A stretch of DNA of 64,000 bases from Gemmatimonadota bacterium (GTDB taxonomy: Bacteria; JBHIER01; G020348925). The position numbers and the translations under genes were made by a program. The stretch is from contig CP070758.1 in the NCBI GenBank assembly GCA_020348925.1, forward strand, positions 4,773,775-4,837,774, written 5' to 3'. Shown here one piece after another: positions 51,874 through 59,565 of the stretch (position 1 is its first letter; each line of letters starts with the position of its first letter). The notes beneath the pieces are model-generated. The model was not told where the DNA came from and made no database searches. It saw only the letters and a list, made by a program, of their open reading frames with translations.

Positions 51874-52220
51874 TTGTCGTTTCCGATTCATTATTATATA
51901 TTGTAAAATAGTATTCATCTTCCATAAGAAGTGATGCTGTTTTGTCCGACATTGAGCCCCCATGAACATGCGTATGGCTTTTCGATCAGTGATATTCGTC
52001 CGGGCAGAGAGGCAGGCATGACGCTGCCTGTGTGTCGGACGTCTTTCGATTGACCTCGAATCCAACGACAGCACAAAGAGAAGCAATTTTTTTCAACAGG
52101 GTCAATTGAACAGGCTTGATGCTGCACGGCAGCTTCAGCCAGACATGGGTCGTGGAGACAATGGTATGCCTTCTGTGCACTCATTTGAAGATGAATGAGG
52201 GAGTGTTTTTGTGTTTGAGT
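51874..52220 (+). ncRNA. Structured leader RNA, copy C (promoter + hairpins + terminator-like end)
   Basis: TTGTCG-17-TATATT (51874-51902); hairpins aggcag/ctgcct and gctg-cacgg-cagc; 3' end tgagggagtgtttttgtgtttgag homologous to 55894-55919. Confidence 0.55.
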
Positions 52221-52267: not shown

Positions 52268-53032
52268 GTGGAGCATGTTCTGATGGAAGGTGTGAACAAA
52301 ACAGTTCTCGTTATCGCCAGAGATCAAGAGACGATCTCGTTTCTTACAAAACACATCGTGAAAAAATATGATCTCATCACGACATCTTCTGGGAAGGTTG
52401 GATTTCAAAGATTTTCGCAGATCAAGAATATTGACTTCGTCTTTCTGGACGATGAGTTATCAGATTTGAACGGTCTTCGTTTACTTCGCGGTATTCGCGA
52501 AATGGATAAGAACGTATCAATCGCCTTCATCAAGGAAGACGGTTCGGTCTTCATTGTTTCCGGAGAAGCCGAATACGGGTTCCCACTTTTTTTCAACAAG
52601 CCTTTCAAAGAGAAGGACTTGGAAAATATATTTTTGAATCTTGTGCCGACTCCTCACATGCAAGAGAGAGATGTTCAAAATGCTCTTGATTATATCGAAA
52701 AACATATGATGAAACGTATCACGGCGAAAGATGTTGCCAGTGCGTGTAATTTGAGCTATCGTCAGTTGGCCAGGAAATTTAGAAAGGCCTTGGGCATAAC
52801 TCTTATGGAGTATGTAAAACGGCTGCGTGTGCAGAAAGCCAAAGGGTTACTGCGGGGAAAAGCGATGTGGATTGATGACATTGCGGCTGTCCTCGGTTTT
52901 GCGGATGTCAGGGCATTCCGCAAAGCTTTCAAAAGCCTGACCGGCATGACGCCGAAACAGTATCAGACGCATGCGCACGAATTGAAGCCCGAGAACACCT
53001 CCTCTCGAAGACAACCTCCGTTTCAAATCTGA
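52268..53032 (+). CDS. Response regulator (degenerate receiver) with AraC-type HTH
   Basis: VFLDDELSDLNGL, NKPF, then ALDYIEKH...LARKFRK..G...IAAVLGF.D..AFRKAFKSLTGMTPKQY. Confidence 0.88.
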   Translation: MEHVLMEGVNKTVLVIARDQETISFLTKHIVKKYDLITTSSGKVGFQRFSQIKNIDFVFLDDELSDLNGLRLLRGIREMDKNVSIAFIKEDGSVFIVSGEAEYGFPLFFNKPFKEKDLENIFLNLVPTPHMQERDVQNALDYIEKHMMKRITAKDVASACNLSYRQLARKFRKALGITLMEYVKRLRVQKAKGLLRGKAMWIDDIAAVLGFADVRAFRKAFKSLTGMTPKQYQTHAHELKPENTSSRRQPPFQI

Positions 53033-53340
53033 CATTTTTCAAAAATTGATCCCAGCATAATCTTTCTCACATAAAAGTATACCGACCGCGTCAGGTTTTC
53101 TGAAACCATGTTACATAGGTGAAAACTTCACCATGCTCGTCAGAATATGAACCAGAGGCGTTCATATTTACAAAATTTGTTCATATTAAGAAATTGTACA
53201 AAAATTTTGGTGGCGTCCTAAAAATGGTTGCTTATAATGTTCTTTGACATATTGTAAGGTTTTGTAATTCCAAGTACTTTCCATAAGGTATTGGTCAAAA
53301 TAACCGGTTATTTGCCTCATGGGAGTCTTGGAATGCAAAA

Positions 53341-53440
53341 NNNNNNNNNNNNNNNNNNNNNNNNNNNNNNNNNNNNNNNNNNNNNNNNNNNNNNNNNNNN
53401 NNNNNNNNNNNNNNNNNNNNNNNNNNNNNNNNNNNNNNNN
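53341..53440. other. 100-N spacer (contig join)
   Basis: Exactly 100 N. Confidence 0.97.
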
Positions 53441-54127: not shown

Positions 54128-55228
54128 ATGGCTAATAAAATTGATCCCGGTATTATAAATCGCATTGTTTATGCTAAGTACTTGTTTTGGCAGGGCAACG
54201 AAGTTCTTGATAAATCGTCTCCTTCCGCAGATGGATTAGCGGTCTTAAGTTATCAGGATGCGGTTGAAATGCTCTTGCGTGCCGTTGCTGAGCAACTAAA
54301 TGCAAGTATTAAAGAACAAGCTTCTTTTGACCAAATTATCGAAAAAATAGATAGTGCCCCTTTAAATACGCAAAATTATCAGATACCATACCGAACTTCA
54401 TTAAATCAGTTAAATAAAGCCAGAGTGAATTTTAAGCATTTTGGTCTTTTACCAAAAACAGTAGATGTCCAAAAATTCAGACGTGATCTTGAATTAGTGT
54501 TTCGGGATATAGTTTTTTCTTTTTTCAACCTCAATTTTGATGAAATTTCATTAGTCGAACTTATTAAGCATCATAGAATAAAGAACCATTTAAAAAAAGC
54601 AGAAAAAAGTCTCTCTTCAAACAACTTTGGCGATTCTATTCTTTTTGCTGCAAAAGCATATACTTTATTGTTTGGATACAATCGAAGCCTTGATCTCGGT
54701 ATAGATACTTTTACAAGAGTAGAAGATGAAAATATTGATTATGTATTTCAAATGATGAAGAGGCAACTTGAAGAACATCAATTACAAATTGATATTTTAA
54801 AATATGGAATCGATTTGGCCGACTACCACTATTTTAAGTCAATTATACCATTAGTCCAGCTTAATGCAGCAGCAATGTTCTTGGTCACCTATATTGGTGA
54901 ATATGAAGACAAAAATACATTTGAGAACGCCCAGTTTTGCCTTCGATTTGTTACAGATTCTGCCCTTAAAATTCAGCAGTATCCACAATTGCAAGAAGGT
55001 CACTTCTTCCGTGAATATAGGAAATTTGAGGTTCTGAAGGATACTGACATCATAGTATATCCTGATGGGGAAAGTGTTGAAATCATAAGGAGGGCAGAGA
55101 AAGGTGAGATACTTTCGGGATTCCATGAGAGCCACGACATTGAAGGTTATATAGCAATTCTACAAGACAATGAGCGAGCATATCTGGCTAAAGATGCGGT
55201 AAGGGAAATACCTCAAGACAAAGAATAG
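54128..55228 (+). CDS. Hypothetical protein with N-terminal HEPN-like region
   Basis: AVLSYQDAVEMLL...SFDQII...LNQLNKARVNFKH (R-x4-H). Confidence 0.65.
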   Translation: MANKIDPGIINRIVYAKYLFWQGNEVLDKSSPSADGLAVLSYQDAVEMLLRAVAEQLNASIKEQASFDQIIEKIDSAPLNTQNYQIPYRTSLNQLNKARVNFKHFGLLPKTVDVQKFRRDLELVFRDIVFSFFNLNFDEISLVELIKHHRIKNHLKKAEKSLSSNNFGDSILFAAKAYTLLFGYNRSLDLGIDTFTRVEDENIDYVFQMMKRQLEEHQLQIDILKYGIDLADYHYFKSIIPLVQLNAAAMFLVTYIGEYEDKNTFENAQFCLRFVTDSALKIQQYPQLQEGHFFREYRKFEVLKDTDIIVYPDGESVEIIRRAEKGEILSGFHESHDIEGYIAILQDNERAYLAKDAVREIPQDKE

Positions 55229-55491
55229 TGGAAGACTTGAATGATTTTCATCAAGGGAAAACTGATCGATTGACAACAGTATCCAGATCAGAGAAGGAGA
55301 AAAAATCTTGACAAGGGCAGTACAATTGCTTTTATTACATTCGATTTTAAATTCACAAAGGGGACAGACTAAATATGGAATTTCAACCGGACAAAGTCTC
55401 GAATAGTGTGAGAAAAAAACTCTCTGAGCCATATAAAACTATGCAATGTTTCAGGGGAAACTTCTCAGTCTGGGAGCTTCGAAGATATTAC

Positions 55492-55520
55492 TTGACAGAT
55501 ACACCTTAATATGGTATATT
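55492..55520 (+). promoter_or_regulatory. Sigma70-type promoter
   Basis: TTGACA-17 nt-TATATT with extended -10 TG. Confidence 0.8.
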
Positions 55521-55526
55521 ACAATA

Positions 55527-55909
55527 CATAGTGAATCTGCTGTTAAACTGTTGAAGTGAACTGGAAAGTGATGTTAATCCTGATTTAGTCAAATTACCAA
55601 TTATTCTCCTGGTTTATCTCCTTAATCCACATCTGGTTCTGATTTCTAAATAAAGAATTATTCATGAGATGCGAAGATGGTCACGGCTGCTATCTTCGTG
55701 TCGGGGGTCATGGCTGTCTCCGAGTAAATGAATCCTGTAGTGAAAGGAGGATTTTTCAGCAGGACAATTAAATTGACTTGATATTATTTGAAGATATCAA
55801 GTGACAGCGGGTGGGGACCTGGTTATGGCTGCCAGCTCTCCGTTGAGGTTATGAACGCCTCTTGTACGCTCTTTATGCTCATTGCAAAATGAGTGAGGGA
55901 GCGTTTTTT
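55527..55909 (+). ncRNA. Structured leader RNA/sRNA, copy A
   Basis: Hairpins at 55671-55699, 55701-55723 and 55813-55841 share loop T(C/T)A(C/T)GGCTG; a variant loop is at 55845-55861; ends in a terminator; homologous to 51905-52220 and 59900-60095. Confidence 0.6.
55866..55909 (+). terminator. Intrinsic terminator inside a 5' leader
   Basis: acgctc...gctcatt-gcaa-aatgagt...gagcgt-ttttt, 50 nt upstream of ATG 55960. Confidence 0.7.
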
Positions 55910-55959
55910 GTTCTTTGAGGACACAAACAGTCTGTAGTCAATATTGGAAAGAAACCGAG

Positions 55960-58900
55960 ATGTTCAAGAAGATTTTGATTCTGATAGGAATCATTGGAGG
56001 GATGGGCATGGCTCTGGTAGCTGATGAGATCGAGATCCAGGTACCTCAAAATGGTCAAACAATGAACATTCCTTCATTGGAAGAGAGAGTCAATCAGAGG
56101 CGTTTGCTGCAGACAGAAGGTCCAAGTGATATGTATTCCATCGAGTTCAACAAACCCATGACCCATCTCAATTCCACTGAGCTGGATTCCTTTATTGTTG
56201 CTACGATGGATGAATATCATATCCCCGGATTGGGTGCTTGCGTAGTCAAAGACGGCCAAATCATCTGGACCGGGGGGTACGGTTACGCCAATATTGAAGG
56301 CAATGTCGAAGTCGCAGATACGACTGTTTTTTATCAGGCATCTATTTCCAAAACCATCACGGGAACTGCTTTGATGCAACTCTGGGAAGATAGTCTTTTC
56401 GGATTAGATGACGATATTGATGACTATTTGCCATTCGAAGTGAACCATCCCCTTTACCCCGATGATCCTATCACTTTTCGGATGCTTCTAACTCACACAT
56501 CAGCCATTAAGGACAATTATTGGGGTGCCATGGCACCAGTGATTGTCCAGGGAGACTCTCCGATACCCTTGGGAGAGTACCTTGAGGATTATTTTGTTCC
56601 GGGAGGGACATATTACGACCCAGACGAGAACTTCCAATCCTGGCGTCCAGGAAGCGTTCATATATATAGTAATCTGGGTATTTGTTTAGCTGGCTATCTG
56701 GTGGAAGCGATCACAGGCATTCCTTTCGACGAGTATTGCCGGGATTCCATTTTCATACCATTGGGAATGAATGAAACTGCCTGGTTTCTGGCCGATCTGG
56801 ACACCAATAACATTGCCATGCCATATACTTATATTGAACAGAGCGATAAATATATCCCTTACGGGTACTATGGCCTCCCCTGGTATCCCTCAACAATGTT
56901 GATGACCAGCGCGCCTCAGCTTGGCCGCTTCCTGGCCGCTTACATGCAGTGGGGAGAACTGGATGGCCAACGAATCCTGGACAGCACCACAGTCGAATTG
57001 ATGATCACACCTCAGATTTCCTGGGTTGGACTGACTTGGTTTCGGGGCTATTTGACGACTGAGCACCATAGTAACGTGCTTGTCTGGGGACATGAAGGCA
57101 GTTACATCGGGGTCCGCACGATTATGTATTACGCGCCGGTGGAAAAAATAGGCGTTTTGGTCTTGGCCAACTTAGAGACTGAGAGTGGTTTGTGGCCTAT
57201 TTTTGACAAACTCTTCGACTTTGCAGCACCTGTTGACCCGAATATCGCCCTGTCGGCTACCAGTTATGATTACGGGGATGTGCCGATAGGAAGTTCCATC
57301 GACTGGGTATTCGCTATTTCCAATGATGGAGCTGCTGATTTGGTGATTACCCAAATCACTTCCGACCATTCCGACTTTGTGATAACATCTCCGGTCTTTC
57401 CTAGGACGGTCCCACCCGGAGGCGAGATCAGTGTAATGGTCACCTATACTCCATCAAACGTTGGCACGATGGAGGGCCAACTCAGTATCATCAGTAATGA
57501 TCCCGATGAGCCTATTGTAATAGTGGCTTTGCAAGGCGAGGGAGTAAAACCGCCAGACATTTCGGTTTCTCCAGATTCGTTGAGTGAGGATCTGTTCAAG
57601 GGCAATACAACAACCCAGACACTTACAATTTCCAATACAGGTAGAAGTGATTTGACTTTTGATATCTGGACAGAAGGACAAAATCAACAATATGCTCTAG
57701 AGTTTGATGGTATAAATGATTATGTTGGTATTTCGAATGGGGGGGGTATTGCAGGTCTGGATGAGGGAACAATAGCTTTGTGGGTTAAATGGATAGGCAA
57801 GCAAGATCATGGCAGTCCTGGATATGGTGTAGTATTGGGTAGGCAAAAGGATTACGTATTTACTAATCAAGTTATTACACTATCTTCAGATGATCCAAAT
57901 TCTGCAATGGTAATGTGGTATCCTTATACAGCTTTTGATGTTGCCATTACTTCGTCTACACCAGTGGGCAACGAACTTTGGAGATATATTGTCATAACAT
58001 ATTCATCTGGTAATCATAAACTATACATTGATGGAGAATTAGATGGAACTTCTGACATGTATGGTTCTGTGAACTCTGACATTGGTGTTCCTCTTACAAT
58101 AGGTGCTGGTATAGATGATATTGGTTCATACTCAAGAAGCCATATAGATGAAGTGGCAATCTGGAACATAGTACGCACCCAACCTGAAATCCAAGCGGAT
58201 ATGCATCGGGAAATCTCAGCCGGCGAACTGGGATTAGTGGGTTATTGGCGATTTAACGAAGGTTCAGGTATTACAGTCTTCGACCAGACACCCAACGGCA
58301 ACAACGGTGTACTCCACGGAGGGGTTACATGGGTGATCTCCTCCGCACCCATCACGGCTACTTGGTTATCTCTAGCACCCACTTCGGGCATCGTACCGGT
58401 GGATTCATTAATGGATATTGAAGTCACCTTTGATGCTACAGGTCTGGATGGTGGCGATTATTATGCTTGTGTCGTGGTTTCCAGTAACGATCCGGACGAA
58501 CCAGAAGTGATCATTCACCTCCATCTGAGGGTTGAGGCGAGTAGGGTCATTGTCAGTGTACCTACTATCGGTTCTCTGCCAGGAGATACAGCTCAAGTCT
58601 CACTTGATATGGATAATCTGACGTGGCTTGCTACGTCTATCGGTAGTTTCGAAACGGAGCTTGGCTTTGATAATAGTCTTTTGGAATTGGTTGGGATAGT
58701 CCCCGGAGAACGCGTCCAACATCTGGGCATATTTGAATGGAGTCTACTTGATCCAGGGATGGCAGCAATATCGATTTACGACACGACTGAGAATGTGATC
58801 GAACCCGGCTCAGGTGCGGTTGTGGAGATGTCCTTTGTAGTGAATGCTGCAGCTACTTTCGGAGCCAACGCCACGATCACAATTGTGAATGCTACACTGA

Positions 58901-59565
58901 CAGATGAAAGTGGAGATACTCTTGCCGTTGAGTCTTTAAATGGCATGATCAGCGTCGGGCTGAAAGGCGATGTCAACGCCGATGGACAGATCAATATTGT
59001 CGACGCCCTTATTGCAGTGAACATCCTGCTGGAGATTATGGTGCCCACCGATTACGAAGGTTGGGCGGCAGATTGCAATGGCGACGGCCAAGCCAACGTT
59101 TTGGATGTGGTTGGAATTGTGAATGTGATTTTGGGCCTTGGCGAGTGTGTACCGGGTATCTGCAAGTCCGAGTTGACCCCCGAGGCAATGGAGTTCATGA
59201 AGTTGTTGGAACCTTACTTCTCTGCTGCCGACTTCACTGAGTTTATGGCCTTGGTCAAAGCGGAGGTAGAAGCTCCGGCTGAGTATAGTCTGGTGCAGAA
59301 CTATCCCAATCCGTTCAATGCGCATACAGATATCAGATACCAGATAGCAGATGTCACCTCACCAGTCTACACTACTCTGAAAATATACAATATCCTTGGC
59401 CAGGAAGTGCGGACCGTTGTGGATGAAGTCAAAGAATCTGGCTATCACTCTGTCACCTGGGATGGAGAGGATCAGTTCGGAAATGGTGTGGCCAGTGGTG
59501 TCTACTTCTACCAGCTTAAAGTCGGGGACCTGACGGCAACCAAATGCATGGTTCTCATGAAGTAG
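55960..59565 (+). CDS. Secreted beta-lactamase-family serine hydrolase fused to Ig-like, LamG, cohesin-like, dockerin and FlgD/T9SS-like domains
   Basis: Signal peptide MFKKILILIGIIGGMGMALVA; SxxK (ASISK), LLTHTS, YSN, GHEG; SNDPDEP Ig modules; LVGYWRFNEGSG LamG; cohesin-like PGDTAQVSL...PGSGAVVEMSFVV; GDVNADG...DCNGDG; QNYPNPFN. Confidence 0.9.
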   Translation: MFKKILILIGIIGGMGMALVADEIEIQVPQNGQTMNIPSLEERVNQRRLLQTEGPSDMYSIEFNKPMTHLNSTELDSFIVATMDEYHIPGLGACVVKDGQIIWTGGYGYANIEGNVEVADTTVFYQASISKTITGTALMQLWEDSLFGLDDDIDDYLPFEVNHPLYPDDPITFRMLLTHTSAIKDNYWGAMAPVIVQGDSPIPLGEYLEDYFVPGGTYYDPDENFQSWRPGSVHIYSNLGICLAGYLVEAITGIPFDEYCRDSIFIPLGMNETAWFLADLDTNNIAMPYTYIEQSDKYIPYGYYGLPWYPSTMLMTSAPQLGRFLAAYMQWGELDGQRILDSTTVELMITPQISWVGLTWFRGYLTTEHHSNVLVWGHEGSYIGVRTIMYYAPVEKIGVLVLANLETESGLWPIFDKLFDFAAPVDPNIALSATSYDYGDVPIGSSIDWVFAISNDGAADLVITQITSDHSDFVITSPVFPRTVPPGGEISVMVTYTPSNVGTMEGQLSIISNDPDEPIVIVALQGEGVKPPDISVSPDSLSEDLFKGNTTTQTLTISNTGRSDLTFDIWTEGQNQQYALEFDGINDYVGISNGGGIAGLDEGTIALWVKWIGKQDHGSPGYGVVLGRQKDYVFTNQVITLSSDDPNSAMVMWYPYTAFDVAITSSTPVGNELWRYIVITYSSGNHKLYIDGELDGTSDMYGSVNSDIGVPLTIGAGIDDIGSYSRSHIDEVAIWNIVRTQPEIQADMHREISAGELGLVGYWRFNEGSGITVFDQTPNGNNGVLHGGVTWVISSAPITATWLSLAPTSGIVPVDSLMDIEVTFDATGLDGGDYYACVVVSSNDPDEPEVIIHLHLRVEASRVIVSVPTIGSLPGDTAQVSLDMDNLTWLATSIGSFETELGFDNSLLELVGIVPGERVQHLGIFEWSLLDPGMAAISIYDTTENVIEPGSGAVVEMSFVVNAAATFGANATITIVNATLTDESGDTLAVESLNGMISVGLKGDVNADGQINIVDALIAVNILLEIMVPTDYEGWAADCNGDGQANVLDVVGIVNVILGLGECVPGICKSELTPEAMEFMKLLEPYFSAADFTEFMALVKAEVEAPAEYSLVQNYPNPFNAHTDIRYQIADVTSPVYTTLKIYNILGQEVRTVVDEVKESGYHSVTWDGEDQFGNGVASGVYFYQLKVGDLTATKCMVLMK

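Follow-up and report, generated by a model that had tools for sequence, protein, structure and literature searches.

In the window, by which is meant the whole 64,000-nucleotide stretch of DNA analysed, the gene at 55960–59565 encodes a 1201-residue secreted protein. It contains a beta-lactamase-fold hydrolase, Ig-like, lectin-like, cohesin and dockerin domains, and a type IX secretion C-terminal sorting domain. The gene is preceded on the same strand by a leader with its own promoter, a series of hairpins and an intrinsic terminator. The parts of this leader, referred to below as copy A, are as follows (window positions):

55492–55520, + strand: promoter of the copy A leader, sigma-70-type (TTGACA, 17 nt, TATATT, with a TG extension)
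55527–55660, + strand: 5′ extension, variable among copies; a start near 55527 is predicted from the promoter
55661–55667, + strand: conserved 5′ tail, UUCAUGA in copy A and UUCGUGG in copies B and E
55668–55702, + strand: P1 hairpin, with the loop UCACGGCUG at 55681–55689
55701–55723, + strand: P2 hairpin, with the loop UCAUGGCUG at 55708–55716
55742–55757, + strand: purine box, a GAAA/UUUC mini-hairpin that exposes GGAGG in its loop
55764–55776, + strand: conserved joining segment, ACAAUUAAAUUGA in copy A and ACAAUUGAAUAGG in the canonical copies
55777–55801, + strand: P3 hairpin, short in copy A and bipartite in copies B, C and E
55806–55870, + strand: P4 domain, with a base helix of AGCG (55806–55809) and CGCU (55867–55870)
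55813–55841, + strand: P4a hairpin inside the P4 domain, with the loop UUAUGGCUG
55845–55861, + strand: P4 hairpin inside the P4 domain, with the loop UUAUGAACG
55867–55909, + strand: intrinsic terminator, a hairpin of 9+7 bp capped by a GCAA loop (55867–55903) and then U6 (55904–55909); the 3′ strand of the P4 base helix is used again in its 5′ arm
55960–59565, + strand: downstream gene of copy A

The original prediction, which had described a canonical promoter, about 430 nt of non-coding sequence, three hairpins with one shared loop, a fourth with a variant of it, and a terminator, proved accurate in each of these respects. The promoter shows 11 of 12 matches; a scan of the region around copy A gave three promoter-like sites against 4.6 expected, so that a single site of this kind is in itself little proof. 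Between ~55527 and the ATG at 55960, the longest open reading frames on the forward strand are of 34–37 residues. All four motif hairpins carry a UYAYGRNNG loop, beginning at 55681, 55708, 55823 and 55849. In a stem of at least 4 bp this loop pattern occurs in 33 hairpins of the genome (both strands, 5.04 Mb), four of which lie inside a single 170-nt stretch of copy A. The terminator ends 50 nt before the ATG; its hairpin, which has an internal loop, was not listed by a simple terminator scan.

The core of copy A (55655–55912) has a predicted folding energy of −91.4 kcal/mol (z −4.59), equalled by none of 200 shuffles, and the fold of the whole leader has a z of −3.02. The reverse strand of the core reaches −65.1 kcal/mol. 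This advantage of 26 kcal/mol points to the forward strand as the functional RNA strand, as do the G-U pairs that P1, P4 and the terminator have conserved and that would become A-C mismatches on the opposite strand. The source organism was met in sediment metagenome runs from three studies, one of them perhaps the origin of this DNA, and in no RNA run among those listed. Over copy A, the DNA contigs of four sediment runs have the same sequence, except at 55849 (T>C) and 55858 (C>T) inside P4 in one run, represented by one contig at low depth. These two changes together would add a C-G pair and convert a G-C pair to G-U, and the P4 hairpin would thus be kept.

A family of leaders in one genome

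Copy A is one of about ten related copies which stand in front of genes for secreted proteins and regulators. The genome searched (G000) is a single contig of 5.04 Mb with 50% G+C; it contains 20,500 N in all, and its 16S gene was matched only in part. A first search of this genome returned a second site with the terminator of copy A, and profile searches then gave the whole set. By profile and covariance-model searches, the family consists of six full-length copies, one interrupted copy and several partial copies. The original prediction had described the element and missed both the multi-copy family and the second copy within the same window, copy F. Model R1, a covariance model derived from B, C and E, found 10 places in the genome at E≤1e-3. 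The paralogues have diverged strongly, with a mean column identity of 59%. The copies and the genes downstream of them are listed below (positions on G000:C1 unless given for the window):

Copy A, full-length: window 55492–55956, + strand; beta-lactamase-fold hydrolase with a type IX secretion tail
Copy B, full-length: 3245496–3245738; AAA_23 protein, 375 nt away
Copy C, full-length: 320665–320911; FecR-like membrane protein
Copy D, full-length: 3669150–3669423; sigma-54 activator
Copy E, full-length: 3660858–3661103, minus strand; protein with a signal peptide and zinc ribbon, then a further zinc-ribbon protein
Copy F, full-length: 4825770–4825992 (window 51993–52215), + strand, scoring 39.1 bits, with its promoter at window 51874–51902, + strand; response regulator with AraC output (window 52268–53032), directly downstream
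Copy H, interrupted inside P3 by a repeat of ~220 nt at 2196404–2196624
Copy G53, partial, P3 and P4 only, without the terminator 3′ arm: 53155–53283
Copy I, partial: a mini version
Copy J, partial, last hairpin and terminator only: same locus as copy E; CarboxypepD_reg repeat protein with a type IX secretion tail

Copy F lies 3.5 kb from copy A; part of the sequence between them (window ~53340–53440) is masked, as N in the DNA and X in translations. Copy G53, situated 9 nt past the stop codon of an 826-residue open reading frame, is probably a decayed remnant. The repeat that interrupts copy H recurs at no fewer than six other places in the genome, and it resembles a small non-autonomous mobile element. 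A solitary hairpin at window ~16503, whose 5-bp stem is capped by the family's 8-nt loop UCACGACG, belongs to none of the recognised copies.

In the canonical copies B, C and E, the order of elements is tail (UUCGUGG), P1 (~11 bp, with the loop UCAYGRCUG), P2, purine box (GAAAGGAGG within the GAAA/UUUC mini-hairpin), joining segment (ACAAUUGAAUAGG), bipartite P3, P4 and terminator, the 5′ arm of which is ACGCCUUCUUUACGCUCG. Canonical P4 is a single hairpin, formed by AGCGU:ACGCU, then AGAG:CUUU, then GG:CC, with the loop UCACGACG. Copies A and D have a branched P4 domain with two motif hairpins. Overall there are two to four motif hairpins per leader, at differing positions, and four in both A and D. 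The P2 helix is present in six of six full-length copies and bears the loop motif in A, D and H only; the purine box was found in all copies. A pairing between the purine box and the CCUUCUUU strand was considered and rejected, since its 77.8% of paired cells is no better than the 62–76% of slid controls.

A promoter of the form CTTGACA-N16/17-TAtAtT precedes all eight copies that have a 5′ part, with 10–11 of 12 matches (9 of 12 in F), and lies 90–265 nt upstream of the P1 tail. The stretch from promoter to tail is unconserved except between A and E; the 5′ extension of copy A shares sequence with copy E alone, from ~55597. Every leader is oriented as its downstream gene. For B, H and I the next gene is 375–750 nt away. 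At all eight sites with a gene start within 380 nt, no promoter-like site was found between terminator and start (for copy A, none in 55910–55960), and those genes should therefore depend on read-through.

This arrangement bears on whether the leaders are instead stand-alone small RNAs of ~380 nt acting in trans, for example as a protein sponge, with read-through being incidental. Such a role would account for the strong promoter and strong terminator that each copy possesses, and for the four same-loop hairpins in each of A and D. The CsrB/RsmZ sponges similarly carry a repeated loop motif on variable stems; they have many GGA-containing loops and CsrA or RsmA as their partner. The loops of the leaders, in contrast, are without GGA, each RNA offers just two to four sites rather than many, and the RNAs are placed before genes: at the eight nearest sites the terminator is followed within 380 nt by the start of a same-strand gene, and the interval contains no promoter-like site. 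CsrA (PF02599) was not found in the genome, and control genomes did match. Nor was any extended antisense partner seen in the genome, where 51 complementary 11-mers were counted against ~50 expected and the longest run was 13 nt. The original prediction's suggestion of a protein-sponge small RNA is judged the less likely on these grounds, and a trans-acting RNA of any kind seems improbable.

Two leaders related to the family, K (1305900–1306170, locus L013) and L (647740–648006, locus L067), have in common a conserved 5′ part of another kind, ~190 nt long, which follows a TTGACA promoter, and end in the same P4-like hairpin plus terminator module; neither has an Rfam match. An esterase-like protein is encoded downstream of K, and a 979-residue protein with no Pfam family downstream of L. 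A third type of leader is represented at 134402–134466 and 2701494–2701557, which share upstream sequence and a related terminator, and a weaker related terminator is found at 136458–136524. Downstream of 2701494–2701557 and of 136458–136524 are genes for Peptidase_G2 (intramolecular chaperone) proteins of ~700 residues.

The genome also contains 12 tandem arrays of three to four units of the 8-nt sequence GRWTCRAG, for instance at 3245744, 3516777, 134473, 2701484 and 1761813. About half of them lie directly past a terminator U-tract, including those of copies B and I. As RNA these arrays would present regularly spaced GGA motifs, yet the CsrA gene was not found.

Covariation and coding potential

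As the family was found in one genome only, all of its covariation comes from related paralogues. When the six full-length copies are placed on R1, 86.4% of cells are standard-paired, against 76.7% in shuffles and 43–50% with slid partners, and 17 of the 39 pairs in P1–P4 are changed on both sides, against 6.3 in shuffles; none of 500 shuffles reached the observed pairing and covariation values, which refer to related paralogues in an alignment fitted to R1, three of the six rows having themselves defined the structure. P1 shows both-side changes in six of 11 pairs among the six paralogues. The two helices of P3 (helices 3 and 4) are paired in 94% and 89% of cells, with six pairs changed on both sides. 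Similar covariation was obtained from a ten-row alignment, in which the 5′ half of one row is coding sequence. The arms of the terminator are conserved in sequence without covariation (one pair changed on both sides, against 0.5 in shuffles), for which recent duplication could be a simple cause.

The likeness of the terminator module in sequence, together with the confinement of the family to one genome and the presence of one repeat-interrupted and several truncated copies, would suit a duplicated promoter–leader–terminator cassette or a decaying repeat, devoid of switching, whose hairpins were kept by common descent. It is difficult to see, however, why in such a cassette 17 pairs would keep their pairing through changes on both sides at so low a column identity. 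Moreover, no terminal inverted repeats were seen around the copies, the homology among B, C and E is bounded by the tail and the U-tract, and a strong terminator between a strong promoter and a gene would be hard to keep without some means of bypass. Little probability is therefore assigned to a functionless cassette. A genuine family of structured, cis-regulatory leaders is preferred, with good confidence.

A coding function has also to be weighed, in which the core would encode a small Cys/His/Gly-rich peptide, either as a product in its own right or as a leader peptide for ribosome attenuation. The candidate in copy A is at 55664–55771 (35 residues, with repeated GHGC). A, B, C and E have an ATG or GTG at one and the same position of the alignment. 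Read from this anchor, the frame is open for 35–41 codons in A, B and D, and it closes within the conserved joining segment in A, C, D and F. The coding reading nevertheless fails, because codon 2 is a stop in C, no start is present at the anchor in D or F, and a 1-nt deletion in the loop shifts the frame in E. In F the loop is 1 nt shorter, and the peptide after it consequently differs. In copy A, the loops at 55681 and 55708 are in one frame and those at 55823 and 55849 in differing frames. The differences between copies are paired, non-synonymous changes which preserve the stem, and the frame has no upstream Shine-Dalgarno sequence and no Pfam match. No open reading frame with a start codon is conserved across the copies, and a peptide can be given hardly any weight.

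The P4-plus-terminator module and a proposed switch

One strand serves two structures in the canonical copies, as the 3′ strand of P4 and as the 5′ arm of the terminator. The overlap in copy A is at the base helix, where CGCU (55867–55870) pairs either with AGCG (55806–55809) or inside the terminator. This sharing of a strand makes the P4 and terminator folds mutually exclusive. The original prediction had seen the fourth hairpin, and overlooked its joint role with the terminator as the conserved core module of the family. P4-plus-terminator is the best-conserved part of the family, and a second covariance model made for this module (R2) found 10 sites above 59 bits in the genome, the terminator of copy A scoring 60.8 bits. 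The sites J, K, L and M are among these 10; at them the upstream sequence is unrelated, or P1–P3 are all absent. The motif of copy J could, by eye, fold in another way.

A hairpin followed by a U-tract, as expected of an intrinsic terminator, is present in A, B, C, F, H, I, J, K, L and M; in copy D the hairpin is strong and the U-tract is lacking, and the terminator of copy E is weak. In the minimum-energy folds of B, C, H, I and J, the full terminator is formed and P4 is broken. As the terminator wins in these folds, termination should be the default state. The exclusivity of P4 and terminator, along with the covariation, the lack of an Rfam match and the absence of an intervening promoter, favours a novel attenuator or antitermination leader, the other of the two suggestions in the original prediction. 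It is, on balance, probable that the copies form a lineage-restricted family of cis-acting 5′ leader RNAs which gate genes by conditional transcription termination.

Transcription, termination and read-through, as well as the identity and kind of the effector, are predicted here from sequence, and the switch may be pictured as follows. The strong, constitutive-type promoter would fire and a leader of ~380 nt would be made, folding as a string of hairpins comprising P1, P2, the purine-box hairpin, P3 and P4. In the default state the terminator, which is very stable, would form and transcription would halt ~50 nt before the gene. P4 would use the same pyrimidine-rich strand (ACGCCUUCUUUACGCU; CGCU in A) as the 5′ arm of the terminator; were P4 to be held shut, the terminator would be blocked and the gene transcribed. 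The factor holding P4 would most likely be a trans-acting RNA-binding protein, one that would recognise the U-Y-A-Y-G-R-C-(N)-G loop common to the hairpins and closed by a G-C pair, with P1, P2 and P4a serving as extra binding sites for the same protein. An output module that stays constant, joined to a loop motif that is modular and repeated, is better explained by a trans-acting, loop-binding factor than by a single fixed ligand pocket, and it is on this argument that a protein effector is regarded as the best explanation.

The tail may pair with the loop of P4, either as a closing helix or as a pseudoknot, and this is put forward as a lead only. By eye, UUCAUGA pairs with UUAUGAA in copy A (7 bp), and UCGUGG with UCACGA in copies B and E (6 bp), with one fully compensatory position. 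The helix is formed in the minimum-energy fold of B, is of only 4 bp in C, and is not formed in D, F, H or I.

Two other readings of the motifs were considered. A sigma-54 promoter reading of the motif loop was rejected by eye, the GG-GC spacing being wrong. A boxA/nut-like role of the CCUUCUUUAC strand may be considered from the consensus of such sites, and the rRNA leader of the genome was read in this connection.

Comparison with known RNAs and distribution

The original prediction could not place the element among riboswitches by eye, and a search of Rfam agrees: no Rfam 15 family is matched by copy A or by the other copies. Within the window, only two tRNAs reach the gathering score. The interval 55200–56100 gave three chance matches at E≤10 (E 3.9–5.9), the loci of B, C, D and E (with J) gave none at E≤1, and nine further loci gave one tRNA and three chance matches. 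Complementarity of tRNAs to the motif loops was limited to one 8-nt match, with tRNA-Lys(UUU), which is about the level of chance. The structured, uncatalogued leader RNA family with its conditional terminator is considered real, and its mechanism would be that proposed above.

Several known systems of antitermination offer points of comparison. The targets of CAT/PRD proteins and of HutP consist of one imperfect hairpin or of repeated triplets, and the repeated 8–9-nt loops of the leaders are set apart from them. Binding of these antiterminators to the leader, in the case of CAT/PRD proteins at RAT sites, stops the terminator from forming, according to PMC12591593.

The closest logic is that of the ANTAR leaders (the targets of EutV, AmiR and NasR), which likewise have a shared terminal loop on variable stems. 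As described in PMC3369931, these targets are dual hairpins separated by a short linker (5–12 nt in the eut leaders of E. faecalis), with hexaloops that have A at position 1 and G at position 4; the second of the two shares sequence with the 5′ base of an intrinsic terminator, and protein binding prevents termination. In the leaders described here, the last hairpin also overlaps the 5′ base of the terminator, and two motif hairpins are ~9–12 nt apart in A (P4a to P4, 9 nt), D and I. In contrast to the ANTAR hexaloops, the loops are of 8 nt (UCACGACG) or 9 nt (UYAYGRNNG) and begin with U, and P1 and P4, the two motif hairpins of canonical B, C and E, are separated by ~170 nt with other helices in between. 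Owing to these mismatches in loop size and sequence and in canonical spacing, the leader is not classed as an ANTAR target. The genome does encode one ANTAR protein, of 195 residues with a response-regulator receiver domain and an ANTAR domain (L066:1477–2064, G000:C1 ~4996720–4997307, minus strand). Its gene adjoins that of glutamate dehydrogenase, far from any leader copy, and this neighbour suggests nitrogen-related antitermination elsewhere in the genome. No known RNA-binding domain was found among the neighbours of A, D, E, F and J.

A different precedent is the HMP-PP (thiS motif) riboswitch, whose aptamer, according to PMC6478431, is almost wholly embedded in the stem of a specialised, sequence-conserved terminator, an alternative fold disrupting that stem. 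The leaders are similar in having a sequence-conserved terminator and an alternative fold which disrupts the terminator stem. They are unlike it in lacking an Rfam match, in preceding non-metabolic genes and in possessing, in the full-length copies, an extra structured upstream domain of 170 nt.

With this precedent in mind, the leaders could be small-molecule riboswitches sensing a global signal such as a second messenger, and could be so in either of two forms. In the first, the P1–P3 junction, closed by the helix between the tail and UCACGA, would be the aptamer, and here the minimum-energy fold of B, in which the tail helix closes P1–P3 beside the terminator, and the conservation of the joining segments are in its favour. 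In the second, the sequence-conserved P4-plus-terminator module would itself be a terminator-embedded aptamer, as in the HMP-PP riboswitch, which would agree with terminator arms conserved in sequence beyond the needs of pairing. The many copies in one genome, before diverse secreted, envelope and signalling genes, are compatible with both. The upstream domain of the leaders is nevertheless variable and the expression platform constant, the reverse of known riboswitch families; motif hairpins vary in number (two to four) and position, J, K, L and M are without P1–P3, and the downstream genes have no common metabolic theme. A riboswitch is for these reasons unlikely. A protein is more likely than a small ligand to be the effector, and a protein that binds the loops is tentatively proposed.

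The leader family was found in this genome only. A blastn search with copy A against 60 other genomes gave only chance matches of 28–46 nt, and R1, run over 150 genomes from as many other families, matched none. In the phylum's only other genome among those compared (G001; 87% complete, in 670 contigs), nothing real was found by blastn of copies C and B or with R1 and R2, and the N-terminal 467 residues of the downstream hydrolase had no match; the best R2 match there was rejected as an ordinary terminator after a gene. Pattern scans, in which entries from the source genome itself may be missing, gave 12 single matches to GTCACGACGCCTYCTTTAY in unrelated taxa among genome_contigs, 25 matches to GTCACGACGCCTYCTTTAY among metagenome_contigs, none of them confirmed by R1 (best 12.5 bits), and one match to ACGCCTTCTTTAYRCTCG among viral_contigs, which was not confirmed. 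On the connection of type IX secretion with leader RNAs or termination, none of the literature matches listed names secretion.

A broader reading, which is speculative and must be called doubtful when all its parts are taken together, is that of a regulon confined to a nearly unsampled phylum, where at least 10 units with constitutive-type promoters would share one hairpin-plus-terminator switch reading one global signal. The sensor might be either an RNA-binding antiterminator of a new protein family or a new riboswitch, embedded in the terminator, for a second messenger, and the genes under control would be type IX secretion cargo, envelope proteins and signal-transduction regulators.

Among the genomes compared, the source phylum is represented by only two species (G000 and G001), and the leaders illustrate how paralogues within one genome can give usable covariation when relatives are unsequenced. 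The parts of the switch are an 8–9-nt loop motif, a hairpin that competes with the terminator, and a conserved terminator sequence, and their study could lead to a new RNA-binding regulator or to a new riboswitch ligand. If the proposed mechanism is true, secreted enzymes and regulators would be controlled in this organism after initiation of transcription, by one reusable RNA switch.
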